Source: an uncultured Oscillibacter sp. (GTDB lineage: Bacteria; Bacillota; Clostridia; Oscillospirales; Oscillospiraceae). From it: a stretch of 64,000 bases of DNA. Positions within the stretch are counted from its first letter, which is position 1. Each line of letters begins with the position of its first letter. A model generated the notes under the pieces. It worked only from the letters and a program-made list of their open reading frames with translations, did not search any database and was not told where the DNA came from. Shown here piece after piece: positions 1-46,571 of the stretch. The stretch spans positions 962-64,961 of the forward strand of contig CAJUDV010000010.1 in assembly GCA_910585385.1 (NCBI GenBank), given 5' to 3'. Made by a program: the position numbers and the translations under genes.

Positions 1-73
1 GGAAGAGCTGCCCGCGTTGATAACCAAAATGTTCATTGTTCCTCGACTCCCTTTTCTTCTTTTTTGAAAATGC

Positions 74-101
74 TTGCAGGATTTTCCACATTTGGTATAA
101 T
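74..101 (+). promoter_or_regulatory. sigma-70-type promoter candidate upstream of tmcAL
   Basis: TTGCAG (74-79), 16-nt spacer, TGg-TATAAT extended -10 (93-101) in an AT-rich stretch upstream of the first gene. Confidence 0.4.
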
Positions 102-191
102 ACCTATATATCCGACTTCATTATAGCAGGTTTTTTTTTTAAGACAACCTCTATTTTTACCGAACTGTCATTTTTTTGTCATCGTTTTGAG

Positions 192-1412
192 GTGATTTTT
201 CTGCGGGCTGCTGGTATCATTACAGAGTACAATCCCCTGCACACGGGCCACCTCTATCTGCTGGGAGCGGTCCGCCGCCTGCTGGGAGAGGACGCCGCCG
301 TCATCTGCGCCATGAGCGGGGACTTTGTCCAGCGGGGGGACTTCGCCCTTCTCCGGCGGCAGGCCCGGGCCGCCGCCGCCGTCCGCGGCGGGGCGGACCT
401 GGTGCTGGAGCTGCCCCTGCCCTGGGCGGCGGCTCCGGCGGAGCGGTTCGCCGACGGGGGCGTCCAGGTTCTGCTGGGTACCGGCGTGGTGGATGCCCTG
501 GCCTTCGGCAGCGAGTGCGGCGACGGAGCCGCCCTGCGGCGTCTGGCCGCGGCGCTGCTGTCGGCGGAGTTTCCATCCCTTTTGAAAGAGGAGCTGGCCC
601 GGGGGGACAGCTTCGCCGCCGCCCGCCAGCGGGCGGCGGGCCGGCTGACCTCCCCCGGGGAGGCGGCGCTGCTGTCACAGCCCAACAACACCCTGGGGGT
701 GGAGTACTGCAAGGCCCTGCTGGCCCGGAACGCCCCCCTGGAGGTGCTGACCATTCCCCGCCGGGGGGCCCCCCACGACGCGGAGACCCCGGCGCCGGAG
801 CAGAGCGCCTCCGCCGCCGCCATCCGGGCCCTGCTGCGGCAGGGACGGCGGCAGGAGGCCCTGCGCCATATGGCTCCCGCCATGGCGGAGGTCTACCGGG
901 ACGAGGAGGCCGCGGGCCGGGCTCCGGTATTTCTGGAAAAGTGTGAGCGGGCGGTCCTGGCCCGCCTTCGGACCATGGAAGAGGCGGACTTCGCCGCCCT
1001 GGACCAGGGCCGGGAGGGTCTCTACCGCCGGCTGTACCGGGCCAGCCGGGCCGCCGTGTCTGTGGAGGATCTGCTGGCGGCAGCCAAGACGAAGCGGTAC
1101 CCCCACGCCCGCCTGCGGCGGATGGTTCTGTGGGCCTACCTGGGCCTGCGGCCGGGGGACTTCCCCGATGCCGTGCCCTATCTGCGGGTGCTGGCGGCCA
1201 ATGCGCGGGGACAGACCCTGCTGGCCCGGATGCGGAAAACGGCCTCCGTCCCCATTCTGACCAAGCCCGCTGCCGTAAACCGGCTGGGAGCGGAGGCCCG
1301 GGAGCTCTTCGCCCTGGAGGCCCGGGCGGCGGACCTGTACGCTCTGGCGTATCCGAACCTCTCCGCCGCCGTGGGCGGCAGTCTCTGGCGGGAGGGGCCG
1401 GCGATGATCTGA
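192..1412 (+). CDS. tmcAL: tRNA(Met) cytidine acetate ligase (YlbM/TmcAL-family nucleotidyltransferase)
   Basis: ORF 36-1412. The conserved part begins AAGIITEYNPLHTGHLYLL, an HxGH-type motif of this family. The first ~50 codons are AT/Phe-rich and overlap the promoter, so the start is moved to in-frame GTG 192 (uncertain). Confidence 0.8.
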   Translation: MIFLRAAGIITEYNPLHTGHLYLLGAVRRLLGEDAAVICAMSGDFVQRGDFALLRRQARAAAAVRGGADLVLELPLPWAAAPAERFADGGVQVLLGTGVVDALAFGSECGDGAALRRLAAALLSAEFPSLLKEELARGDSFAAARQRAAGRLTSPGEAALLSQPNNTLGVEYCKALLARNAPLEVLTIPRRGAPHDAETPAPEQSASAAAIRALLRQGRRQEALRHMAPAMAEVYRDEEAAGRAPVFLEKCERAVLARLRTMEEADFAALDQGREGLYRRLYRASRAAVSVEDLLAAAKTKRYPHARLRRMVLWAYLGLRPGDFPDAVPYLRVLAANARGQTLLARMRKTASVPILTKPAAVNRLGAEARELFALEARAADLYALAYPNLSAAVGGSLWREGPAMI

Positions 1413-1436
1413 GACCTCGGAAAGGGGAAATGACCC

Positions 1437-2309
1437 ATGAAAAAAACAATTTTGCTGATACTGCTCTGCTGTCTCCTGGCGGGGTGCACCGCCGCCCCGG
1501 CGGACCGGGAACCCGCTGAGAACCCTCCGCCCCCGGCGGCGGAGCCCGCGCCGGAGGAGCCCTGTGTCTGCACCGTTGAGATGATGGACTGGGAGGACAG
1601 CGCCGCGGACGAGGACGGCACCGCTCTGGCAACGTGCCGCGTTCACATGCCGGTGCTGACCGCCCGCCGGGCCGACGGCACCGCCATTGAGACCGCGGAG
1701 ACGGAGGCCGAGGCCCGGGCTCTGGCGGCGGCGGAGACCTTCAACGCCCAGTTCGCGGCCTGGACGCTGGACGAGGAGTTCCAGGAGCTGGCGGCTCTGG
1801 CGCGGGAAGAGCGGGCATGGCGGCAGGAGAGCGGCATTGACTGGGGCCATGCCTTCTTTACGGAGATGACCGGCGAAACCTACCAGACGGACCGGCTGGT
1901 GAGCGTGGCGGGGGAGTATTACAGCTACACCGGCGGCGCCCACCCCAACACGGTGCTGATGGCCTGGAACTTCGATCTGGAGACCGGGGCGTTCTTCGTG
2001 CCGGAGCAGCTGGCGGGAGACGGCGAGGCATTCTCCCAGGCGGTGAGCGCGGAGATTGTCCGCCAGATCGGCGAGACGGCGGCGGAATATGACCTGGCGG
2101 CGGAGGAGGTATTCTGGGAGAATTACGAGGAGATCGCCGCCGGGTGGAGCAGCTACGCCGTCAGCTTTGACGAGACGGGCATGACGGTGGGCTTCTCCCC
2201 CTACGAGCTGGCGGCCTACGCCGCCGGGTCCCAGGTCTTCCGCCTCCCCTATGACCTCCTGGCCCCCCATCTCGGCGATTACGGCCGGGCGGTGCTGGGT
2301 CTGGAATGA
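1437..2309 (+). CDS. lipoprotein with DUF3298/DUF4163-like (RsiV/PdaC-type) domain
   Basis: Lipobox signal peptide MKKTILLILLCCLLAGC. The YYSYTGGAHPNT motif is typical of DUF3298. Acidic, GC3-rich coding frame. Confidence 0.7.
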   Translation: MKKTILLILLCCLLAGCTAAPADREPAENPPPPAAEPAPEEPCVCTVEMMDWEDSAADEDGTALATCRVHMPVLTARRADGTAIETAETEAEARALAAAETFNAQFAAWTLDEEFQELAALAREERAWRQESGIDWGHAFFTEMTGETYQTDRLVSVAGEYYSYTGGAHPNTVLMAWNFDLETGAFFVPEQLAGDGEAFSQAVSAEIVRQIGETAAEYDLAAEEVFWENYEEIAAGWSSYAVSFDETGMTVGFSPYELAAYAAGSQVFRLPYDLLAPHLGDYGRAVLGLE

Positions 2310-2318
2310 CGCGGAGGG

Positions 2319-2346
2319 ACAGCGGGCGAACGCCCGCTGTTTTTCT
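2319..2346 (+). terminator. rho-independent terminator
   Basis: ACAGCGGGCG-aa-CGCCCGCTGT followed by TTTTCT, 10 nt after the stop codon. Confidence 0.55.
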
Positions 2347-2348
2347 AC

Positions 2349-2396
2349 TTGACATACCTTGTGTCTCTATGTATAATAAGCATAGAGACACAAGGT
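2349..2396 (+). promoter_or_regulatory. promoter with perfect 16-bp inverted repeat (putative PadR operator)
   Basis: TTGACA (2349-2354), 17 nt, TATAAT (2372-2377). ACCTTGTGTCTCTATG (2356-2371) and CATAGAGACACAAGGT (2381-2396) bracket the -10 box. Confidence 0.6.
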
Positions 2397-2421
2397 ATTA
2401 TTTTTGAGAGGAGTGAAAAAG

Positions 2422-2760
2422 ATGCCGAAAAAGCAGCAGATCGAGCACACGCCGCTGCTGGTGCTGTCACTGCTGGCGGGGGAGGACATGTACGGCTACC
2501 AGATGATTCTGGAGCTGGCCCGCCGGTCCAACCACACCTTTGACATGAAGGAGGGCACGCTGTACCCAGTGCTCCACGGCCTGGAGCAAAAGGGGTATCT
2601 GGAGGCCTACCGGCAGGAGGCCCCCACGGGCCGGACGCGGAAGTACTACCACCTGACCCGCAAAGGCGGCGAGGCCCTGCGGACGGAGGCGGAGAGCTGG
2701 CGGCAGTACAGCGGGGCCGTGGACGCGGTGCTCCGCTCCTCCGCCCTGGGGATGGCGTGA
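2422..2760 (+). CDS. PadR family transcriptional regulator
   Basis: MYGYQMILEL...GTLYPVLHGLEQKGYLEAY...RKYYHLTRKG winged-helix PadR signature. ATG 2422 follows RBS GAGAGGAG. Confidence 0.85.
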   Translation: MPKKQQIEHTPLLVLSLLAGEDMYGYQMILELARRSNHTFDMKEGTLYPVLHGLEQKGYLEAYRQEAPTGRTRKYYHLTRKGGEALRTEAESWRQYSGAVDAVLRSSALGMA

Positions 2761-3614
2761 TGAATCGCTCGGAGTACTGCGCCCAGGTGCTCTCCCACCT
2801 CCGCCGCCTGTCCCGGCGGGAGCGGGAGGCCGTCCGGGCGGAGCTGGAGGAGCACATGGAGGACCGCGTCTGCGCCCTGCTGGACCTGGGCTACGACCAA
2901 TCGCTTGCGGAGGAGCGGACCATGGCCGCCATGGGGGACCCGGCGCAGGTGGGCCGGGAGATGGCGAAACAGTACCCCCGGGGCTGGAATGTGGTCACCG
3001 GCGTGTCGTTGGTCCTCTGTGTTTTTGTGATGTTCTCGGCCCTCTCCAGCAGTTCCAACAGGAAGATGATCGGGTATGCCTGGGACAGCCTCGTCTACCG
3101 TGTGTTCCCGCCGGGGCCGGAGACGGTGATCGCGGGCACCGTCTCCCCGCGGGGGATCGAGCCCGTCTCCGGCGTCACGGAGGCGGTGGACATCCGGCGG
3201 ACCATCGGAGACAACGTGCTGCGGGTCTACCAGATCACCGTGGGGACTCAGGACAGCCAGACGGCGGCGAAGACCCGGATCTATGAAGACGGTTATCAGG
3301 ACGGCGCGCTGGCGGCGGAGGCGGCGAAATCCCAGGAGGAGGGACAGCTGACGGCGGAGGCGGCGGTGTGCATCTACCACAAAATTCCCGGCGGCCTGGT
3401 GGCGATGCCCTTGTTCAACAATCTCACGGCGGAGAGCCAGCGGGGAGACCAGCAGGTCCCCTTTCGCCGGGGGGCGGTGGCCAATCCGATGATGTGGCAG
3501 GTCTTTCTGCGCTCCCCCGTCCAGCCGGGGGACGACCATATCACCCTGCGCTACGCGTGGCTGGGGGAGCGTGTCACCGTGGACATTCCCCTGCCGGAGG
3601 AGGGTGCGTCATGA
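2757..3614 (+). CDS. PadR-associated membrane protein (DUF1700/HAAS-like N-terminal helical domain)
   Basis: Start overlaps the PadR stop (GTGATG). The N-terminus YCAQVLSHLRRLSRREREAVRAELEEHMEDR resembles DUF1700-type partners of PadR and is followed by a TM helix. Confidence 0.6.
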   Translation: MMNRSEYCAQVLSHLRRLSRREREAVRAELEEHMEDRVCALLDLGYDQSLAEERTMAAMGDPAQVGREMAKQYPRGWNVVTGVSLVLCVFVMFSALSSSSNRKMIGYAWDSLVYRVFPPGPETVIAGTVSPRGIEPVSGVTEAVDIRRTIGDNVLRVYQITVGTQDSQTAAKTRIYEDGYQDGALAAEAAKSQEEGQLTAEAAVCIYHKIPGGLVAMPLFNNLTAESQRGDQQVPFRRGAVANPMMWQVFLRSPVQPGDDHITLRYAWLGERVTVDIPLPEEGAS

Positions 3615-4333
3615 GGAGAAAAAAGAAGCTGTCCACCCGCCGGCGGCGGGGGGTGCGCTGCGCCGCGGCCGCTCTGGTACTCCTCATTCTGGCGCAGAAC
3701 TTTCTGCACACGGCGCTGCTGCTGCCCATCCAGGCCGTCCGGCTGGCGGAGGAACAGAACGGCGTCCAGGATACCCGGGCCGTCCGGCGGCAGTGGGAGC
3801 CGGAGCTCCTCAACGGAACGGCCCTGTTCTATCTAACGGCCAGCGACAACGCCGTGCTTCTCACGGATACGTATTTAACCGCCCGAGGCTGGCAGCCCAG
3901 GTATTCGGGATTGCTGGACTGCACCGAAGACAAGCCTCTCCACGCCGGAGAGCGGATCGTCACGCTGGACGCCGGAGAGGACGCCGAAAACCGCTACTAC
4001 GGCACCCACCTCTTTTTCTACGGGCGGGTGGACGACCCCGCCATTGAGACCGTGGAGATCCGCCTCCAGGCGCCTCCCGATTATGAGACAGCGGAGGGGG
4101 AGACCGTCGACCAGGGTTATCTTCTGCTCACCGCTCCCATCTTCCAAAAGAATGGGCGCCGGTATTTCCTCCTGGATTACCGGGCGCCCTCCCCGGACAG
4201 CGTGAAGAGGGCGGACCGCATTGTCGGAAGAAACGCCGCAGGGAACGGCGTCACGTCGTTTCAGATCCCGGTGACCGGCGTCAACATCGCCCGCCGCACG
4301 CCCAGAGGGGCGGAGGCCGGCGGGAGTACATAG
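3611..4333 (+). CDS. signal-anchored hypothetical protein
   Basis: ATG 3611 (MRRKKKLSTRRRRG then hydrophobic AAAALVLLILAQNF) overlaps the upstream stop (ATGA). In frame with track ORF 3368-4333. No family recognised. Confidence 0.5.
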   Translation: MRRKKKLSTRRRRGVRCAAAALVLLILAQNFLHTALLLPIQAVRLAEEQNGVQDTRAVRRQWEPELLNGTALFYLTASDNAVLLTDTYLTARGWQPRYSGLLDCTEDKPLHAGERIVTLDAGEDAENRYYGTHLFFYGRVDDPAIETVEIRLQAPPDYETAEGETVDQGYLLLTAPIFQKNGRRYFLLDYRAPSPDSVKRADRIVGRNAAGNGVTSFQIPVTGVNIARRTPRGAEAGGST

Positions 4334-4343
4334 AGAACAAACG

Positions 4344-4373
4344 CTCCCCCCGCGCCAATGGGCGCGGGGGGAG
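4344..4373. terminator. bidirectional hairpin terminator between convergent genes
   Basis: CTCCCCCCGCGCC-aatg-GGCGCGGGGGGAG, a 13-bp stem between the stops at 4333 (+) and 4380 (-). Confidence 0.6.
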
Positions 4374-6723: not shown

Positions 6724-9700
6724 TTACTCCAGAAGCTCCCGCATCCGCAGCAGCATTTTCAGGTCGTTTTCTACGCACATGGAGGCAGGCTGGCTGGCGT
6801 CATAGCGCAGACAGCCGCCTTTGTCCGGGCTGAGGGGCAGAATCACCGCCTCGCTGAGACGGGAGAGGGTCAGATTCCGGGCGTACCGCTCCCGGTAGGC
6901 GGACTCCAGCGCCAAAAGGATGCCGCGGCTGTTCTCCAGGCAGGTCCTGGAGAAGGCAAACACCGCCTCCCGGCCGCATTCCTTGTAAAACTTAGGAAAG
7001 GCGTAGGGCAGGATCAGGTTTACCGCCGGGGTCAGGCCGGGCACGGAGGCCCGGGCCCCGCCTACGGTGTCTCCGCCGATAAAGGGGTACATGGTGGACT
7101 CCACGAACCAGGCCCGCATGTTGGGGATGTAGTAGACGCTGTCCACCTCCCGGCCCCGGGCGGCCATCAGGTCCCGGCCCCGGCCGGAGAGAAGCCCCAC
7201 CACGCAGCGGTCCACGTCCACCCCCTCCCGCCGGAACAGCGGGTCCAGAACCTGAATCCGGTTGCCGGAGTGGAGCAGGTCGTCCACCAGCATCACGGGA
7301 CGGCGGAAGGAGCGGATGGTGCGAATCTGGCTCTCCAGCGGGGCATAGCCGGGAAATGCCTCAATGGTGAAGGAGCGCAGGTCCGGCGCAAATACCTTGT
7401 CGGTGTGGATGGTCTTGGTGACGGTGTTGGGCACGGCGCTGCCCCGCAGGATCTTGCCGAAGGGAACGCACATCTTGGGTCCCAGCACCCGGGGAGACGT
7501 GGGCTCGGCGGGCACGCCGTTGAGAACCGTCAGCTTTCCCACCAGGCGGTGGTAGATGACCCCGGCGTTAAGGGACAACACCAGCGCCCCGGGATACAGC
7601 CCGCAGATGGCCCGCTGGAGCTGGTGGTGGGCCTTTTGGATGGACGCAAGCACCTGGAGATCGGAGGAGAAGGGCTCTTTCAGCGTGGTGGGGATGTTCT
7701 GGAGCAGCACCGCCGGGGAGCGCATGTCCACCAGCAGCAGGGGCCGCTCCTCCGTCCCGGCAATGGAGACAAAGCCCTGCCGGGCCAGCAGGTCCAGCAC
7801 CTCCGCCGCCGGGGCGGCGCCATACCAGGCGGCGTAGCCGCAGTCCTCGCCCATGGCCTGGGACAGCGCCTCCGTCAGAAGAAGCTGGCCGGCGTCGTAA
7901 CCGCCGCCGGGAACGCGGGCCAGGTACAGCCCCGTCAGCAGCCGGATCCGCCCCGCCGCCCGGCAGCGCACCGCGTCGGCCAGGTCTCCGTCGCCCAGGG
8001 CGCCGTACAGCTCCCGGTCGCTGACAGTCCGCAGGGTCAAAAAGCCCAGAATCCGCTCTCCGGACCGGGTGTGACGCAGAATCAGCACGCCGTCCCGGGG
8101 GTCCGGCTCCGGCAGGGGACGTCTCTCCGCGGCGGCCATGGCCCGCAGCTCCTCCCACAGCGCGGCGTCAGGGTGTGGAATCCGCTCAAAGTCCAGGAAG
8201 CCCGCCCGGACCACCTGCTTGTACTGGGGCTCCCGCAGGTACAGGCTGTTGCGGTAGATGTAGTCCTGCACCGAGGGCTCGATGAGGTTGGAGATGTCCC
8301 GCCCCAGATCGATGTTCTCCCGAATGCGGGTGGAGCTGATGTCCTCCAGGTGGGTCGGCAGCTGGAGCTGGAGCACGTCTCCCCGGAGGCAGGAGAGGTC
8401 GGCGTCGATCTCCCGTCCCTCGGCGTCGCTGGAGCGGCGGAAGACGATATGATTGAGGAAATGGACGGAGCCCGGGGCGGGCGGAGCCCTGTAGGACGAG
8501 GCGCCCGCCACCACGTCGGACCCCACGGCCAGATACAGCGCCTGCCCGGCGAACACCTGCCGCAGCCGGTCCAGGTCGGCGGGGGTGGCCAGGTTTACCG
8601 GGATGTCGTGGGGGAAGAGGTACACGTCGAACTCGTCCGCCACGGACATGCTGACGATCTGCCGCCGGATCAATGAGGGCTGGGCCTTCTTGGACCAGGA
8701 GAACTCGTCCACCGCCAGGTAGACCTCGAACCCCAGGTTCCGGATGGCCTGGACAATGCCCTTGTGGCTGAGGGAGAAGGGGTCAAAGGTCCCGGGGAAG
8801 AAGGCGGCCTTCTCCGGGATCTCAAACTGGAAGGGCCCGCTCTGGATCTTGTGGAGGACGATAAAGCGGTAGACGTGGGAGAGAGAGGCAGCGGTGTAAA
8901 AGAACGTCAGCTCCTCCTCCGGCTGCTCACCGATGAGGAACAGCAGCTTTTTGCCGATAAGGGTGAAGAGGGAGGTCTTATCCTCGTAGCCCAGGGCCTT
9001 GGAGGCGAAGAGCCCCCCCAGAATGTGGAGGGCCTCCTGCCGCGCCGCCTCCCGGCGGTCCGCCAGGCCTTTGAGGAGGAGACCCGCCAGGGTCCTGCGG
9101 CGGACGGCGAAGGCGTCCCCCTCGCCGAAGCGGGGGGCGTAAGCGGCGTAGTGCTCCAGCATGGCCCCCAGGGTGGCCAGGGCCGCCGCCACCACGTCAG
9201 TGTTGGGAGAGGAGAGGAGGACGGCCATCTGGACCACCACCTCGTCCAGCTCCCGGGGGGTCAGCCACAGGGCGAACTGGCCCAGGTACTCCGGAATGTA
9301 CTTGGAGATCTCCGCCTGGCCGGTCTCCAGGGCCTTGGCCATCTCCACGGCGATCTCGTTGCGCCGGTCCGGCGTCAGCGCGGGGGCAATGGCCAGCAGC
9401 GCCGCCCCCGCCATCCGGCGCACCACCACGTGCTCGCTGACCTTGATGAGGTTGGAGAAGTGGGTGGCGATGTGGAGGGCGTTGGCTCCTCCGGAGCGCT
9501 CCACCTGGTCCAGCAGATACTCCACGCCGGCGGCCTTCAGAATCCAGGGCGTGGCGGTCTTGAGGTTGTCCAGGGACACGCCGCTGGCGGCCCCCGGGCG
9601 GCCCAGCAGGGTCTTTTTGGCGGATACGTCCAGCCCCAGCCGCTCCCCCAGCTGCACCTGGAGGAACAGCAGCGGCACGCTGGCGGCGCAGTCCGCCGCC

Positions 9701-11529
9701 TCCACGGCTCCGGCGATGACCTGACGCTCCTCCGCCGTCTCCGGCAGGAAGTTCAAAAGGTGCCGGAACAGCCGCAGGGCCGCCGCCTTCTGGGGGGCCT
9801 CCCCCCGGTCCAGCCACCAGGCGGCAAAGGAGGCCAGCAGGCCGCAGCTCCCCGGGTCCGCCCGCTCCAGGGGGGCGTTCATCACGGCGTCCAGCAGGGC
9901 AAAGGCCGCGTCCGGCTCCGCGGCGGCGGGGTCTTCATAGTGGCGCAGGAGCTCCGCGGCAAAGCGGGGGGCGTCCTTGCCGGAGCAGTCCCCCAGCAGA
10001 GCGTCCACCACGGTCTTGGCCTGGTAGCGGATCATACTGGTCTGGCGGGGGGTCAGGCGGCGGTCCGGGTGGATGAGCTTCTCCAGATACTCCGCCCACA
10101 GCTGGAAGGGCCGCTCCTCCAGGGGGTCCGGGGCCGCGCCGGCGGGCAGCTCCTTTTTGTAGCCGGAGAGAAACCCCGCCAGCACCCGGCCGATAAGGGC
10201 GGCGGCGTGGCGCCGGATGTCGCCGTCCGCCGACAGCAGCAGCTCGTAGAGAAAGTCCAGGGTCTGTTCCTTCTGCCCGGCGCTCCAATAGGTGAAGTAC
10301 TCGTCGAAGATGGCGACATACGCCCGCAGCCGCCCGGCGTCCTTCTCACTGCGGGCGGCCTCCAGCGTAGCCAGAAACAGGTGCTCCCGGCCCAGCCGGT
10401 GCATCAGGCGGATGTTGTGGTCCACGGCGGTATAGCGCAGGTAATACACCACCTGGTCCGGGGAGGCCAGGGCCGCGTCCCGCCGGGAGACCGGAGGCAC
10501 GCCGGAAGTCTCCAGGGTGGTGTCCACGCCGAAATAGGTCAGGTACTCCTCAAAGTCCCGGAGCTTGGCGTAGACGAACTGATACCGCCTCCGCTTGGCA
10601 TCGTCCACGTTGTCCAGCTTGCCCAGAATCACGTCAAAGGCGTCTTTCAGGGAGAAGAGCTCCGCAATCTCCCCGCCGTCGGCCCCCCGGGACTGCTTTA
10701 CCCGGAAGTCGGCGTACACCAGCACCAACGACTCCGCGGACAGATTCTCAATCTCCAGATCCCAGACAGAGTGGTTGGCGGCGATATGACCGATGGCGTG
10801 CAGGTTCCGGCGGGAGCACCAGAGGTCGGTGTAGTAGTAGTGGAGATAGGGCACCCGCTCCCCGGGCCTGCATCCGAATTTCCCGATGTCGTGGGCGGCG
10901 GCGGCGCCGCTCATGAGCCCCAGGTCAATGCGCCCGCCCCCGGCCTTGAAGGCCCGGGCCACGGTCATGGCGGCGTGGTGGACGCCGGCGATGTGCTCCA
11001 GGGTCCGGAAGGGCGTCGCCTCCCGGCCCAGGCGCAGCAGCTCGTAGACGTACTCCATCCGCAGCCGCTTTTGAAACAGGCGGTACTCCGCCGCCACGGC
11101 GCTGCCGGAGAGCTCCTCCTCCGTGCAGAAGGCGAAGTCCAGCCAGGGGTCAAAGGGCAGGGACTGCCGCTCGGCGTCAAAGAGCACCTGGAGGAACTGG
11201 AGAAAACACAGGGCCCCGTCCCACTGGGCGGAGGTGTGGGCCCCGTCCGCCCGGGGGTAGAGAAGGGACAGGGCCACCTGGTAGGCGCAGCGGAGCCACC
11301 CCTCCTCCGGCTCCGGGGCCAGGGCGTCCAGCATGGGGCGGAAGGACGCCAGCGCCTGGGCGCAGGTAAGCCGCTCCCGAATGGGGAGCAGGGGCGCCAA
11401 AGCGCCCTTCCAGTCGGCGGCGCCGAAGACCCGCCGGATGTCCTTGCGGCCAAATCCCAGTTTTTTCAAAAACGCCCGGTCGTTGAAGGTCTCCACCAGC
11501 TTGATCCGAAGGGCCTTTTCCTGTTCCAT
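6724..11529 (-). CDS. giant multidomain protein: HD domain + helical (HEAT-like) repeats + NadD/CoaD-type nucleotidyltransferase + GNAT-like segment + type-I phosphoribosyltransferase
   Basis: ORF 6724-11697; ATG 11529 (MEQEKAL) after GAAGAGG. Motifs: HHAAM...AAAHDIGKF (HD), FFPGTFDPFSLSHKG and ISSTRIRENI (class-I NTase), RPVMLVDDLLHSGNR (PRPP loop). Confidence 0.8.
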   Translation of the reverse strand: MEQEKALRIKLVETFNDRAFLKKLGFGRKDIRRVFGAADWKGALAPLLPIRERLTCAQALASFRPMLDALAPEPEEGWLRCAYQVALSLLYPRADGAHTSAQWDGALCFLQFLQVLFDAERQSLPFDPWLDFAFCTEEELSGSAVAAEYRLFQKRLRMEYVYELLRLGREATPFRTLEHIAGVHHAAMTVARAFKAGGGRIDLGLMSGAAAAHDIGKFGCRPGERVPYLHYYYTDLWCSRRNLHAIGHIAANHSVWDLEIENLSAESLVLVYADFRVKQSRGADGGEIAELFSLKDAFDVILGKLDNVDDAKRRRYQFVYAKLRDFEEYLTYFGVDTTLETSGVPPVSRRDAALASPDQVVYYLRYTAVDHNIRLMHRLGREHLFLATLEAARSEKDAGRLRAYVAIFDEYFTYWSAGQKEQTLDFLYELLLSADGDIRRHAAALIGRVLAGFLSGYKKELPAGAAPDPLEERPFQLWAEYLEKLIHPDRRLTPRQTSMIRYQAKTVVDALLGDCSGKDAPRFAAELLRHYEDPAAAEPDAAFALLDAVMNAPLERADPGSCGLLASFAAWWLDRGEAPQKAAALRLFRHLLNFLPETAEERQVIAGAVEAADCAASVPLLFLQVQLGERLGLDVSAKKTLLGRPGAASGVSLDNLKTATPWILKAAGVEYLLDQVERSGGANALHIATHFSNLIKVSEHVVVRRMAGAALLAIAPALTPDRRNEIAVEMAKALETGQAEISKYIPEYLGQFALWLTPRELDEVVVQMAVLLSSPNTDVVAAALATLGAMLEHYAAYAPRFGEGDAFAVRRRTLAGLLLKGLADRREAARQEALHILGGLFASKALGYEDKTSLFTLIGKKLLFLIGEQPEEELTFFYTAASLSHVYRFIVLHKIQSGPFQFEIPEKAAFFPGTFDPFSLSHKGIVQAIRNLGFEVYLAVDEFSWSKKAQPSLIRRQIVSMSVADEFDVYLFPHDIPVNLATPADLDRLRQVFAGQALYLAVGSDVVAGASSYRAPPAPGSVHFLNHIVFRRSSDAEGREIDADLSCLRGDVLQLQLPTHLEDISSTRIRENIDLGRDISNLIEPSVQDYIYRNSLYLREPQYKQVVRAGFLDFERIPHPDAALWEELRAMAAAERRPLPEPDPRDGVLILRHTRSGERILGFLTLRTVSDRELYGALGDGDLADAVRCRAAGRIRLLTGLYLARVPGGGYDAGQLLLTEALSQAMGEDCGYAAWYGAAPAAEVLDLLARQGFVSIAGTEERPLLLVDMRSPAVLLQNIPTTLKEPFSSDLQVLASIQKAHHQLQRAICGLYPGALVLSLNAGVIYHRLVGKLTVLNGVPAEPTSPRVLGPKMCVPFGKILRGSAVPNTVTKTIHTDKVFAPDLRSFTIEAFPGYAPLESQIRTIRSFRRPVMLVDDLLHSGNRIQVLDPLFRREGVDVDRCVVGLLSGRGRDLMAARGREVDSVYYIPNMRAWFVESTMYPFIGGDTVGGARASVPGLTPAVNLILPYAFPKFYKECGREAVFAFSRTCLENSRGILLALESAYRERYARNLTLSRLSEAVILPLSPDKGGCLRYDASQPASMCVENDLKMLLRMRELLE

Positions 11530-11739
11530 CGCGCACCTCTTCTCCGCCCGGTTCGGGCGGGGGATTTTTTTCATCATACCATATCCGGCAGGGGGAGGGA
11601 AGCGGAAATTTCGGCTGCCGGACCTCATGGGAAACGCCGGGCGCATTTCATGCGCCCGCGGTACGGCGGCATGCCGCGTAAGTCCCGCAGAGGGCAAACG
11701 GGCAAAAGCTTCGGCCGGCGGAAGAATTTCCGCCGGCCG

Positions 11740-11826
11740 GGGGATTATTTGAAAAATAACGGAATGCCCGGCGGCGAGAGATCTTTTCGCCGGGAGGGGT
11801 GGAAAAGATCTCTCGCCGGTTTTTGA
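11740..11826. repeat. degenerate copy of the intergenic inverted-repeat element family, containing a + strand terminator-like hairpin
   Basis: TATTTGAAAAATAACGGAATGCCCGG resembles the arm GTTTGAAAATTGGCGGAATGCCGG at 60660. A 16-bp stem pairs 11772-11787 with 11803-11818, then GTTTTTG. GAAAAGATCTCTCGCCG resembles 26328-26345. Confidence 0.45.
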
Positions 11827-13311: not shown

Positions 13312-13346
13312 CGCGCGTTTCGCCTGTCGAAACGCGTGTTTTTTCT
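13312..13346 (+). terminator. riboswitch expression-platform terminator
   Basis: CGCGTTTCG-cctgt-CGAAACGCG followed by TGTTTTTTCT. Confidence 0.75.
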
Positions 13347-13380
13347 GCCTCCGCGACAAACAAAAAAGGAGACGAATACT

Positions 13381-14568
13381 ATGGCAAGACATTACCTGTT
13401 CACTTCCGAGTCCGTGACCGAGGGTCACCCCGACAAAATCTGCGACCAGATCTCCGACGCCGTGCTGGACGCCATCCTGGCCCAGGACCCCCAGGGCCGC
13501 GTGGCCTGCGAGACCACGGCCTGCACCGGGCTGATTCACGTCATGGGCGAGATCACCACCAAGTGCTATGTGGACATCGACAAGATCGCCCGGGAGGTGG
13601 TCCGGGACATCGGCTATGACCGGGGCAAATACGGCTTTGACTGCGACACCTGCGCCGTCATCACCTCTGTGGACGAACAGTCCCCGGACATCGCCATGGG
13701 CGTGGACAAATCCCTGGAGAGCAAGACCGGCGAGACGGACGAGCTGAGCCACGGCGCCGGCGACCAGGGCATGATGTTCGGCTACGCCTGCGACGAGACG
13801 CCGGAGCTGATGCCCCTGCCCCTGGCCCTCGCCCAGAAGCTCTGCAAGCAGATGACCCTGGTGCGCAAGACCGGCATCCTCCCCTACATGCGGCCCGACG
13901 GCAAGAGCCAGGTGACGGTGGAGTACGACGAGTCCGGCCGCCCCGTCCGGGTGGACACCGTGGTCATCTCCACCCAGCACAACCCCGACGTCACCCTGGA
14001 CCAGATCCGGCAGGATATGATCCAGCAGGTGGTGAAGGTGGTTATCCCCGCCGACATGCTGGATGAGAACACCAAATACTACGTGAACCCCACCGGCCGC
14101 TTCGTCAAGGGCGGTCCCGCGGCGGACGCAGGCCTCACGGGCCGGAAGATCATTGTGGATACATACGGCGGCAGCGCCCCCCACGGCGGCGGCTGCTTCT
14201 CCGGCAAGGACCCCACCAAGGTGGACCGCTCCGCCGCCTACGCCGCCCGGTGGGTGGCCAAAAACATTGTGGCGGCGGGCCTTGCAAGGCGCTGCCAGAT
14301 GGAGCTGGCCTACGCCATCGGCGTGGCCCAGCCGGTGAGCATCCTGGTGGAGACCTTCGGCACCGGCGCCGTGGACGACGGCAAGCTGGAGGAGGCCGTC
14401 CGCAAGGTGTTTGACCTGCGGCCCACCGCCATCATCCGTGACCTGGACCTGCGCAAGCCCATCTACCGCAAGCTGGCGGCTTACGGCCACATGGGCCGGG
14501 AGGACCTGGGCGTGACCTGGGAGAAGACCGACCGGGCGGAGGCTCTGAAGGCCGCCGTGGCGGAGTAA
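13381..14568 (+). CDS. metK: S-adenosylmethionine synthetase
   Basis: [30 protein letters not shown] and [16 protein letters not shown] are canonical MetK motifs. ATG 13381 follows AAAGGAG. Confidence 0.95.
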
Positions 14569-44114: not shown

Positions 44115-46571
44115 ATGAAAAAGAGAGCCATCCCGCAGCAGGCGAAACCTGCCCGCCGGGACATGCCCCGCCTGGAGCCCGCGGCGGACAGGGGGCTCAC
44201 CTCCGCCCAGGCCCGGGAGCTGGCGGAGGCGGGGTGGGACAATCGCCCGGCGGAGTCCCCCACCAAGTCCGACCGGCAGATCATCCGGGAGAACCTTCTC
44301 ACCTACTTCAACCTCATCTTCGTGGTGCTGGCGGCCTGCCTGCTGCTGGTGGGGGACTGGAAGGACATGACCTTCCTCTTCATCGTGGCGGCCAACGCCG
44401 TCATCGGCATCGTCCAGCAGCTGCGCTCCAAGCGGACCATTGAAAAGCTGTCCCTGCTGTCCTCCGCCAGGGTCCGGGTGGTGCGGGACGGCAAGGTCTC
44501 AGAGCTGCCGGTGGACCAGCTGGTACGGGGGGATGTCGTCGAGCTCACCGCTGGGTGCCAGATCCCCGCCGACGGGCCGGTGCTCACCGGCCAGGCCCAG
44601 GTGAACGAGGCCCTCATCACCGGCGAGGCGGACGCCATCGCCAAGGGGACGGGGGACGGTCTCCGCTCCGGCAGTTTCGTCATCTCCGGCAAGTGCCGGG
44701 CCCGGATGGACCAGGTGGGGGCGGACTCCTACGCCGCCAAGCTGACCCTGGCCGCCAAAAAGGACGCCGGCCCCGGCAAGAGCGAGATGATGCGCTCCCT
44801 GGACCATCTGATCCGCTTCATCGGCGTGGCGCTGATCCCCATCGGCGCCGCCCTGTTTTACACCCAGTTCGTCACCCAGGACCTGGGGCTGCGGCAGTCG
44901 GTGGTGTCCACCGTGGCGGCCCTCATCGGCATGATCCCAGAGGGGCTGTTCCTCCTCACCAGCGTGGCCCTGGCGGTGAGCGTGGTGCGGCTGGCCCGGA
45001 ATCGGACGCTGATCCACGAGATGAACGCCATCGAGACCCTGGCCCGGGTGGACGTGCTGTGCGTGGACAAGACCGGCACCGTCACCTGCCCCCAGATGCA
45101 GGTGCGGGAGGTGGCGCTCCTGGACGCCGCCGCCTGGACGGAGGCGGACATCGCCGACACCCTGGGGGCCTTCTACCGCTGTATGGAGCCGGACAACGAC
45201 ACCGCCCGGGCCATCGCGGAGAAGTTCTCCTACGGTCCCGCCTGGCCCAGCCGGGAGACGGTGCCCTTCTCCTCGGCCGCCAAGTGGAGCGCCGTCAACT
45301 TCGCGGGCCGGGGGGCCTATGTCATCGGCGCGCCGGAGTACGTGCTGGGCAGTGAGCTGGAGCCCCTGAAAGACCGCATCCGGACCTACACGGAGCAGGG
45401 CTGCCGGGTGCTGCTGCTGGCCCAGTGTGACAGGGCGGAGGAGGGCCGTCTCCACGGCCTGGTGCTGCCCATGGCCCTGCTGGTGCTGGAGAACCCCTTG
45501 CGGCCCGGGGCCGCCAGGACCTTCGCCTATTTCCACGACCAGGGGGTGGACGTCAAGGTCATCTCCGGCGACGAGCCGGTGACGGTCTCCGCCATCGCAA
45601 GCCAGGCGGGCATCCAAAATGCGGAGCGCTGGGTGGACGCCCGGGAGCTGAAAACCGACGCCGACATCGCCCAGGCGGTGCGGCAGTACACGGTGTTTGG
45701 CCGGGTGGCGCCCAACCAGAAGCGGAAAATCGTCCGGGCCCTCCAGAGTCAGGGCCACACCGTGGCCATGACCGGCGACGGCGTCAACGACGTGCTGGCC
45801 CTGAAGGACGCGGACTGCGGCGTGGCCATGGCCTCCGGGGCGGACGCCGCCTGCCAGGTGGCCCAGTTGGTGCTGCTGGACAGCGACTTTGCCGCCATGC
45901 CCAAGGTGGTGGCGGAGGGGCGCCGGGTCATCAACAACATCCAGCGGGCCTCGGCGCTGTACCTGGTGAAAAACATCCTCTCCTTTTTTCTGGCCATCAT
46001 CACGCTGTTCGCCGACTTCCCCTATCCCTTCATCCCCATCCAGCTGACGCTGATCTCCTCCCTCACCATCGGCATTCCCTCCTTCTTCCTGGCTCTGGAG
46101 CCCAACCACGATCTGGTCCAGGGGAAGTTCCTCCACAACGTGTTCCGCAAGTCCTTCCCCGGCGGGCTGACGGCTATCTTCGTGGTGCTGTTCGCGGAGC
46201 TGTTTGTCTACGCCCTGGGACTGGAGCTCCAGGAGCTGTCCACCATCTGCGTGGTGATCATGTCCATCAACTGTCTGACGGTGATCTACTACGCCGCCCG
46301 GCCCATGGACCGCAAGCGCACCGTGATGCTCTCAGCCATGAGCGTCGCCATGGTGGCGGCAGTGGTGTTCTTTGGGGACGTGTTCTCCCTGTCCCTCCCG
46401 GGGCTGTCCTTTGCCGGATGGCTGGTGCTGGCCGCCATGGCGCTGCTGGTGGTTCCCGTCCAGATGCTGCTGGAGCGGCTGTTCGACAGGTGCAGCGTCT
46501 TCCTGGCCCGCCGGACCAAGGGAAAAAACAGGCGCAGGGAGAGCCGCCGTGGCCCCTCCCGCGGAAGATAG
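44115..46571 (+). CDS. cation-translocating P-type ATPase (P2/HAD-IC type)
   Basis: ITGEADA, CVDKTGTVT (phospho-Asp), MTGDGVNDVLALKDAD. About 10 TM segments. Confidence 0.9.
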   Translation: MKKRAIPQQAKPARRDMPRLEPAADRGLTSAQARELAEAGWDNRPAESPTKSDRQIIRENLLTYFNLIFVVLAACLLLVGDWKDMTFLFIVAANAVIGIVQQLRSKRTIEKLSLLSSARVRVVRDGKVSELPVDQLVRGDVVELTAGCQIPADGPVLTGQAQVNEALITGEADAIAKGTGDGLRSGSFVISGKCRARMDQVGADSYAAKLTLAAKKDAGPGKSEMMRSLDHLIRFIGVALIPIGAALFYTQFVTQDLGLRQSVVSTVAALIGMIPEGLFLLTSVALAVSVVRLARNRTLIHEMNAIETLARVDVLCVDKTGTVTCPQMQVREVALLDAAAWTEADIADTLGAFYRCMEPDNDTARAIAEKFSYGPAWPSRETVPFSSAAKWSAVNFAGRGAYVIGAPEYVLGSELEPLKDRIRTYTEQGCRVLLLAQCDRAEEGRLHGLVLPMALLVLENPLRPGAARTFAYFHDQGVDVKVISGDEPVTVSAIASQAGIQNAERWVDARELKTDADIAQAVRQYTVFGRVAPNQKRKIVRALQSQGHTVAMTGDGVNDVLALKDADCGVAMASGADAACQVAQLVLLDSDFAAMPKVVAEGRRVINNIQRASALYLVKNILSFFLAIITLFADFPYPFIPIQLTLISSLTIGIPSFFLALEPNHDLVQGKFLHNVFRKSFPGGLTAIFVVLFAELFVYALGLELQELSTICVVIMSINCLTVIYYAARPMDRKRTVMLSAMSVAMVAAVVFFGDVFSLSLPGLSFAGWLVLAAMALLVVPVQMLLERLFDRCSVFLARRTKGKNRRRESRRGPSRGR

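Follow-up and report, generated by a model that had tools for sequence, protein, structure and literature searches.

A giant clostridial protein with HD, nucleotidyltransferase, GNAT-like and phosphoribosyltransferase-like domains heads a conserved operon with two redox genes

The joining of a NadD-type adenylyltransferase to an HD phosphohydrolase in one polypeptide is known from the NadD–YqeK fusions (NCBIfam PRK07152), the closest characterised precedent for the protein discussed here. In one such fusion, JCVISYN3A_0380, the HD domain hydrolyses the nicotinic acid adenine dinucleotide (NaAD) analogues made by NadD (PMC9426524). The same pairing occurs in a much larger protein of 1,601 residues encoded by an uncultured Oscillibacter sp. 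(Clostridia, family Oscillospiraceae) on contig CAJUDV010000010.1, of which a stretch of 64,000 nt, referred to as the window, was analysed. The gene for this large protein is real and conserved, and it heads a conserved three-gene operon, in which it is followed by a gene for a lactate dehydrogenase (LDH)-like NAD dehydrogenase and then by one for an FMN-reductase-type flavoprotein (downstream genes 1 and 2; dn1 and dn2). Each domain of the large protein belongs to a known superfamily, and the combination of HD and NadD has the precedent just named; no characterised protein or paper matching the architecture or the operon was found.

The NadD–YqeK fusions are ~360 aa long, beginning with NadD and ending with HD. 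Unlike them, the large protein carries its HD domain first and separates it from the nucleotidyltransferase (NT) domain by ~560 aa of helical repeats. Further, its HD domain is unrecognised by YqeK models, and GNAT-like and phosphoribosyltransferase (PRT)-like domains, as well as two redox partner genes, come in addition. In a family alignment of 25 sequences with 35–65% identity, to which the member counts for the large protein below refer, PRK07152 matches 10 of the 25; the copy encoded in the window (the window protein) is matched only via the NadD half. For the NT domain, the best sequence match is VPA0413 of Vibrio parahaemolyticus (PDB 3H05; a PRK08887-type NadD-like protein; E=1e-9), with which it has in common the W-x-K of its DEFSWSK segment and an (I/R)SST-IR C-terminal motif. 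VPA0413, however, is a single-domain protein of 177 aa and is itself uncharacterised; a literature search found no paper on it.

A conserved gene and its operon

The gene lies on the minus strand (Table 1; coordinates are window positions and residue numbers are those of the window protein). A plus-strand reading of 6724–11529 was rejected, as a stop lies inside the frame. Translation of the minus strand gives 1,601 residues and a stop with zero internal stops, from an ATG at 11529 to the stop codon at 6724–6726. The ribosome-binding, Shine–Dalgarno-like stretch GGAGAAGAGG stands just 5' of this ATG, and the N-termini of homologues align with the same start. The first-pass annotation of this DNA, made from the letters alone, had described a single uninterrupted 4.8-kb frame, the largest gene in the window and one whose composition matches its surroundings. 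The translation, the list of open reading frames (ORFs) and the GC content (0.65–0.69 at the gene vs 0.57–0.70 over the whole window) agree with that description, and the strand had been overlooked. The only other ORFs of at least 700 aa in the window are one of 818 aa at 44115–46571 and one of 1,020 aa at 8764–11826 (+), which runs antisense and overlaps the large gene. The latter is a typical high-GC shadow and not a gene, and its size shows how little the length of an ORF by itself proves in this genome.

The homologous clusters at 90% identity that match the window protein number more than 7,000; together with full-length conservation across phyla, they make the gene more than a chance ORF. 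An exhaustive search with the C-terminal 1,200 residues of the window protein as the query, run over clusters at 50% identity, matched 934 of them at E<1e-3 and 308 at E<1e-30; among the best 150 of these clusters, most are 1,550–1,670 aa long. A genome scan with one genome per species returned 126 loci, with matches spanning residues 1–1601 at 35–93% identity. The carriers are Oscillospiraceae, Lachnospiraceae-like clostridia, Peptococcaceae, Sedimentibacter, Anaerovorax, Alkaliphilus, Caloramator, Fonticella, Marinisporobacter, Atribacterota and one Fusobacterium-labelled metagenome-assembled genome (MAG). Identity tracks taxonomy, at 35–50% between families and 89–93% within Oscillibacter. 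The first-pass annotation had proposed a conserved clostridial function rather than mobile cargo and had called for a survey of distribution and neighbourhood; that survey places the gene in Clostridia and Atribacterota with conserved partner genes, and this distribution, the agreement with taxonomy and the lack of defence-model matches bear the proposal out.

The copy in the Fusobacterium-labelled MAG (L075 8001–12902) is 48% identical to the window protein, closer than many from Clostridia, which suggests mis-binning or horizontal transfer. In a single Anaeromicrobium MAG, two contigs hold a full operon each (L071 7947–12839 and L076 7944–12803; ~35% identity to the window protein), so the operon may be duplicated within this genome if the bin is clean. 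No paralogue of the large gene was found inside the window.

Literature searches returned no papers under the annotation names of the large protein and no characterised orthologue; the only work in which four or more of the five domain terms occur was a jumbo-phage survey. Together with the PDB searches, this is consistent with the earlier remark that no enzyme of this architecture has been characterised.

The operon with its redox partner genes is a new finding, which the first-pass annotation had missed. The first partner, dn1, adjoins the large gene in 67 of the 72 loci with enough sequence; dn2 accompanies it in 50 of 63. The genes are separated by median gaps of 10 and 6 nt, with many cases in which a stop codon overlaps the next start. 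When all flanking ORFs from 77 loci were clustered, no conserved neighbour emerged besides the three operon genes, and the recurrent neighbours came from one closely related Lachnospiraceae-like group. Nine loci keep dn1 while dn2 is undetected downstream within the available sequence (L015, L016, L018, L022, L023, L028, L049, L069 and L073), and both genes are missing from four (L007, L009, L013 and L063).

Compared with the PDB, the dn1 profile finds L-LDH at E=3e-8. In common with L-lactate and malate dehydrogenases (MDH), dn1 has an invariant Rossmann GxGxxG motif with Asp, the (S/T)(N/D)PVD segment, here SDPVD, and the catalytic Arg/Arg/His set. Its invariant R203, R277 and H301 occupy the positions of LDH R109, R171 and H195, as mapped by inspection. 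Unlike LDH, dn1 has an extra N-terminal extension of ~100 aa, which is variable, and an invariant Met in place of LDH Asp168; it scores 21 bits vs an equivalog cut-off of 303.

For dn2, Pfam FMN_red is matched at E=2e-22 and by 21 of 21 members, and the dn2 profile has no match in the PDB. The published motif of the iron–sulfur flavoproteins (Isf) is CX2CX2CX5-7C (PMC3164229). They share with dn2 the FMN_red flavodoxin-like domain, a compact four-Cys motif just after the FMN phosphate loop and an occurrence in anaerobes. Unlike Isf, dn2 has the spacing CX2CX4CX8C, formed by the invariant cysteines C207-x2-C210-x4-C215-x8-C224, and an additional N-terminal domain of 160 aa.

Domains of the large protein

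Searches with the window protein as a single sequence gave only sub-threshold matches in Pfam (CTP_transf_like at 18.7 vs 21 bits, plus HEAT) and, in NCBIfam, NadD models at 36.1 bits vs the TIGR00482 equivalog cut-off of 112.45. The corresponding PDB search returned nothing useful, and a periplasmic-binding-protein match was spurious. The six motifs quoted by the first-pass annotation are all present in the translation and in the order it gave (Table 1). Across the family alignment, the majority-residue fraction is 0.70 for the HD domain, 0.66 for NT and 0.61–0.67 for PRT, and it is 0.43 for the GNAT-like domain, 0.46 for the first half of the HEAT region and 0.40 for the N-terminus. Judged by this measure, the strongly conserved parts of the large protein are HD, NT and PRT, a pattern compatible with three functional sites set in structural or regulatory filler.

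Among the columns of the HD domain, 38 are invariant in the family. They include H179, H213-D214 (HDIGK), H230 (LHYYYTDLW), H253 (NHSxWD) and D274 (YADFRVK), each invariant in the 25 sequences, and this full H/HD/H/H/D ligand set is the pattern of binuclear HD hydrolases. Pfam HD (PF01966) does not match the window protein and matches two of the 25 members, at E≥0.003; the C-terminal part of the DVU_1551 model matches 14 members and TIGR00295 matches six. The models of YqeK (COG1713), a hydrolase of Ap4A and NaAD, in NCBIfam match neither the window protein nor any of the 25 members. In the PDB, the HD profile aligns weakly with 1xx7 (E=0.04). Similarly, Foldseek on the HD structure model (predicted local distance difference test score, pLDDT, of 92) returned 1xx7, 2pq7, 2cqz, 6yvc and PgpH as weak matches, with a probability of up to 0.91, yet E-values of 0.2–1 and TM-scores of at most 0.48. 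The weak matches by hidden Markov model (HMM) and by fold all name HD proteins, and the identity of the domain as an HD phosphohydrolase is supported by them together with the invariant metal-ligand residues.

The assignment of the NT domain to the NadD/NMNAT/PPAT superfamily is solid at the sequence level. Its motifs are GTFDPF(S/T)x(S/G)H, DEFSWSK, GSD and ISSTxIR; the first, with invariant H922, and the last are conserved nucleotide-binding signatures, the first being the PPAT-like T/SxGH variant. CTP_transf_like (PF01467) matches 25 of 25 members, with a best E of 3e-10. The NadD models also match all 25 (best E 1.5e-13, below cut-off) and are the best-scoring families throughout, and PPAT models match 22. 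With the NT profile, PDB entry 3H05 is followed by the Plasmodium falciparum NMNAT 5llt (4e-8, full length) and PPAT (2e-7), and many further NadD and NMNAT entries are matched. The public records name the protein "nicotinate-nicotinamide nucleotide adenylyltransferase" (RefSeq, UniRef) or "cytidyltransferase-related domain protein". The adenylyltransferase name arises because NT is the one domain that HMMs detect; it over-interprets this domain and is misleading. When the metabolism of gut Clostridia is reconstructed, the gene should be left out of the NadD orthologues.

The C-terminal 502 residues were modelled by AlphaFold2 (AF2) with a pLDDT of 93.7 and a predicted TM-score (pTM) of 0.93. 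A Foldseek search of the PDB with the GNAT-like part returned GCN5, NatD, Naa60, RimI and AtaT at E ~1e-4 and a target TM-score of 0.55–0.65. The beta-alpha fold is thus common to this domain and to GNAT acyltransferases such as GCN5, NatD, RimI and AtaT, yet there is no sequence similarity: Pfam GNAT (PF00583) matches neither the window protein nor the 25 members, and the domain profile has zero matches among PDB sequences at E≤10. The beta4-alpha3 loop (aa 1204–1212) differs between family members both in sequence and in length and holds no Q/RxxGxG/A acyl-CoA pyrophosphate loop, and with six invariant columns of 171 the domain is the least conserved part of the protein. As it lacks a CoA-binding loop and is poorly conserved, the GNAT-like domain is probably not catalytic; judged from its sequence, it is unlikely to be an acyltransferase and looks like a degenerate fold.

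In the PRT-like part, Foldseek points to Bacillus subtilis xanthine phosphoribosyltransferase (XPRT; 1Y0B, 2FXV, 6W1I) as the best structural match (1y0b/6w1i, E=3e-5), with uracil phosphoribosyltransferase (UPRT) 1i5e and adenine phosphoribosyltransferase (APRT) 7y94 also returned. Against viral models, Hpt and UMP-synthase match the PRT part; all matches of the C-terminal part to viral models are to single GNAT or PRT domains, and none has both domains arranged alike. The strand-DD-loop-Gly-helix geometry is common to XPRT and the PRT-like domain, and the motif for phosphoribosyl pyrophosphate (PRPP) aligns. This motif reads (I/L)LVD1416-D1417-x-L-H-K-G1422-x-R1424, with D1416, G1422 and R1424 invariant and D1417 conserved in at least 90%, and in a PDB profile search the loop aligns weakly (E=0.24) to IIEDILETGTT of hypoxanthine phosphoribosyltransferase (HPRT). 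Invariant polar residues include K1372, D1416, R1424, E1477 and D1487. The domain is unlike XPRT in its 14% identity, its HKGxR loop (vs ANGQA or TGxT), its large insertions (MCVPFG...VPNTVTK) and its C-terminal helical bundle; MCVPFG, VPNTVTK and YPFIGGD are family-specific invariant motifs. No PRT HMM passes threshold: the type-I PRT model PF00156 of Pfam matches neither the window protein nor the 25 members, and the HGPRT and APRT models of NCBIfam match two of the 25 each at E ~0.004.

The remaining parts are helical. Residues 340–900 contain 15.7% Ala and 14.6% Leu, in line with the Leu/Ala-rich helical repeats noted earlier for this region. Pfam HEAT (PF02985) matches the window protein at aa 770–794 (E=0.003; 18.2 vs 23.5 bits), sub-threshold HEAT matches occur in 10 of the 25 members (best E 5.9e-5), and D/E-x-V/I-R-x-x-A-x-x-x-L-G signatures recur. 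These repeat signatures suggest a HEAT-like solenoid of ~500 aa. The N-terminal aa 1–150 are poorly conserved, with a mean identity to the window protein of 0.25.

Collectively, the architecture proposed by the first-pass annotation stands for NT, by HMM and PDB profile, and for HD, by invariant residues. The structure prediction and Foldseek search it had suggested recovered GNAT and type-I PRT folds, so that these two calls appear right at the fold level of the predicted models, and HMMs do not recover them.

Table 1. Coordinates of the features discussed; positions are those of the window, except for the PPDK_N-type loci (HD-less paralogues without redox partner genes; the gene upstream of the one in L090 has no Pfam data), which are numbered within their own loci
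Feature	Residues	Position	Strand	Basis or remark
Whole gene, 1,601 aa + stop	1–1601	6724..11529	-	Identical to WP_293284131.1 / MCI9648759.1, Oscillibacter sp.
N-terminal helical region	1–150	11080..11529	-	AF2 model pLDDT 92, all helical
Probable HD-type phosphohydrolase domain	151–335	10525..11079	-	Invariant ligand residues, weak HMM and fold matches
Leu/Ala-rich HEAT-like helical region	400–900	8830..10332	-	Sub-threshold Pfam HEAT, repeat signatures
NadD/NMNAT/PPAT-type NT (HIGH-class Rossmann)	905–1104	8218..8817	-	HMM, PDB profile, motifs
GNAT-fold domain	1105–1285	7675..8217	-	AF2 and Foldseek
Type-I PRT-fold domain and C-terminal helical bundle	1286–1601	6727..7674	-	Foldseek, weak PRPP-loop alignment; motifs MCVPFG, VPNTVTK, (I/L)LVDDxLHKGxR, YPFIGGD
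Motif HIAGVHHAAM	179–188			
Motif AAAHDIGKF	210–218			
Motif HIAANHSVWD	248–257			
Motif FFPGTFDPFSLSHKG	910–924			
Motif ISSTRIRENI	1064–1073			
Motif RPVMLVDDLLHSGNR	1410–1424			
dn1, LDH/MDH-superfamily NAD-dependent dehydrogenase homologue	410 aa	5446..6678	-	PDB profile, residues
dn2, N-terminal domain of unknown type + FMN_red	351 aa	4380..5435	-	Pfam, alignment
Terminator-like hairpin, 13 pairs, 12 G-C		4344..4373	-	Directly after dn2, marks operon end
PPDK_N-type loci		L084 5449–11273; L086 3317–9303; L087/L088 3426–9198		
PPDK_N-type loci, continued		L089 3474–9615; L091 3297–9906; L090 3–5377		

A sister family and the flanking DNA

The distant matches include proteins of 1,065–1,300 aa with no HD domain and a shortened solenoid. 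One of them, P0235 (L085 129–4299; 1,079 aa), has an intact NT domain and is followed by an LDH-like gene, so the HD domain is dispensable for the link to the dehydrogenase. In five others (P0254, P0264, P0268, P0240 and P0237), a PPDK_N protein of ~850–900 aa (Pfam E=1e-39) is encoded immediately upstream; stop and start codons overlap in four of the five, and P0237 (L091) has a 4-nt gap. Upstream of P0224 (L090), an overlapping gene is cut by the contig end and carries no Pfam data. Dehydrogenase and flavoprotein genes are absent beside all six of these paralogues. In three, the NT motifs are degenerate (H922 changed to D, ISST lost) and the GNAT region is shrunken, with the PRT-like motifs persisting. 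This comparison leaves the HEAT, NT-like and PRT-like domains as the constant core, the partner of which varies: one version has a fused HD domain together with two redox proteins, and the other has an ATP-grasp PPDK_N protein.

In the 300-nt spacer upstream of the large gene, several G+C-rich, terminator-like inverted repeats on both strands (11709–11814) separate it from a preceding 292-aa gene without a family match. Upstream of the operon, Rfam models detected no riboswitch or leader, and a sigma-70 promoter scan returned no sites. The only riboswitch nearby is a SAM (S-adenosylmethionine) riboswitch (RF00162; 13204–13296 (+), 83.6 bits, E=4.5e-19), directly 5' of metK, the S-adenosylmethionine synthetase gene (~13336–14568 (+)). 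On the other side, the opposite strand of ~1–4300 carries a PadR/HAAS pair, a DUF3298/PdaC-like gene, a TmcAL-type HIGH_NTase1 gene and acetate kinase, none of which is conserved beside the operon in other taxa.

Candidate functions

By analogy with the NadD–YqeK fusion, the operon may encode an enzyme complex for making an NAD-like nucleotide with a pyrophosphate link and for editing it by hydrolysis. This reading is favoured tentatively, at a likelihood somewhat short of even. The first-pass annotation had offered the building and trimming of a nucleotide-like cofactor or signal as a chemistry that the domains would fit, which is a conjecture. The large protein would then be a scaffolded nucleotide-metabolising enzyme. 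Its PRT-like domain would bind PRPP or a 5-phosphoribosyl compound and probably make a mononucleotide, and the NT domain would use ATP to adenylylate a phosphate-bearing substrate, giving a pyrophosphate-linked, NAD-like dinucleotide. The HD domain would hydrolyse products of this kind, either to proofread them or to turn them over, in the way that YqeK acts for NadD, and the GNAT-like and HEAT parts would be structural or ligand-sensing. The partners dn1 and dn2 would synthesise the non-nucleotide moiety or change its redox state; judging by the LDH-like active site, this moiety may be a 2-oxo- or 2-hydroxy-carboxylate-type group.

Several results weigh against such an editing complex. The HD, GNAT and PRT domains fall below every curated HMM threshold (Pfam and NCBIfam; window protein and 25 members), which, by the threshold test that the first-pass annotation had set itself, formally refutes these three calls; NT is supported across the family. 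The NadD equivalog scores lie far under the cut-off (36 vs 112 bits). In NadD, the mononucleotide-site motif after strand 2 is PxxxPPHK; here the PPHK-type motif of this nicotinic acid mononucleotide (NaMN) site is absent and an invariant D941-E-F-S-W-S-K947 stands instead. The PRT phosphate loop has HKGxR in place of the usual TGxT, and a PRT-like domain can serve purely as a sensor, as it does in B. subtilis PurR. Further, about one locus in five has no dn2, so the third gene is not obligatory. Finally, the degenerate NT domains and the PPDK_N partner of the paralogues are unpredicted by a simple assembly line from PRT through NT to HD.

A regulatory or sensor enzyme is an unlikely alternative. 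In such an enzyme, the PRT-like and GNAT-like domains would sense ligands, for example PRPP, (p)ppGpp or acyl-CoA, and the opposing NT and HD domains would attach a nucleotidyl group to a HEAT-held target, possibly dn1 or dn2, and take it off again, following the logic of GlnD and GlnE. A GNAT-like domain without catalytic and CoA signatures, best PRT matches to XPRT structures that include the ppGpp-bound 6w1i, and paralogues in which NT can degenerate while the PRT-like motifs stay would all suit a sensor, and the long HEAT scaffold and the tight translational coupling with two partners fit a complex. However, the PRT-like domain is conserved as much as the catalytic domains and has several invariant polar residues. 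In addition, HIGH-class transferases are unlike GlnD and GlnE, which have an unrelated pol-beta fold, and we know of no protein modification by HIGH-class transferases of the NadD/PPAT type.

The public name implies a housekeeping NaMN/NMN (nicotinamide mononucleotide) adenylyltransferase, that is NadD with a YqeK-like proofreading HD domain and other domains as accessories. The name itself in RefSeq and UniRef, the rank of NadD models as best-scoring for 25 of 25 members and the existence of NadD–HD fusions speak for this role. It is nevertheless disfavoured and improbable, as the scores are three to four times under the equivalog cut-offs, the mononucleotide-site motif is not conserved, no YqeK model matches and some paralogues have a degenerate NT domain. 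The two full-length copies on separate contigs of the Anaeromicrobium MAG, if the bin is clean, point the same way.

Still less probable, and speculative, is a reading in which the operon is a self-contained, non-orthologous and HEAT-scaffolded route to a pyridine-type NAD-like dinucleotide or a new redox cofactor. Here a heterocyclic base with a carboxyl group would be produced, or made aromatic, by dn1 and the Fe–S flavoprotein, ribophosphorylated by PRT, adenylylated by the NadD-like domain and proofread by HD; the paralogues coupled to PPDK_N would form another version of this machinery. Such a route would parallel NadX/NadB with NadA, or the dehydrogenase-plus-flavoprotein dipicolinate synthase. 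To our knowledge, Atribacterota do not form spores, and the dipicolinate idea was demoted because the family also occurs in them. A role of dn1 and dn2 as dipicolinate synthase (bioRxiv 10.1101/803486) is therefore kept only within this speculative route.

Nucleotide-centric domains such as HD, NT and PRT are common in conflict systems (compare PMC7824862), and the operon, as a self-contained module of three genes, occurs in genomic surroundings that vary. PADLOC-DB models, however, match none of the three operon proteins, identity tracks taxonomy and the GC content matches the host, and no mobile-element genes recur beside the operon. A conflict or anti-phage role, through manipulation of NAD or nucleotide pools, is very improbable. 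As for an artefact that fuses separate genes through assembly or annotation error, DNA of 68% GC yields long ORFs easily, as the antisense shadow illustrates, but the likelihood of such an artefact is close to nil: the identical protein occurs on at least 19 independent contigs, 126 species-level genomes have full-length matches and homologue lengths hold steady at 1,580–1,670 aa, so that full-length relatives across phyla exclude the assembly chimera considered by the first-pass annotation.

The gut harbours Oscillibacter and its relatives in abundance, and the large protein and its redox partners are retained in both Clostridia and Atribacterota. Should the domains act one after another, as in the editing complex favoured here, the operon could reveal a new nucleotide cofactor or signal of anaerobes, or an alternative NAD-type pathway. 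If they are regulatory, the large protein would represent a new type of nucleotide-sensing hub.

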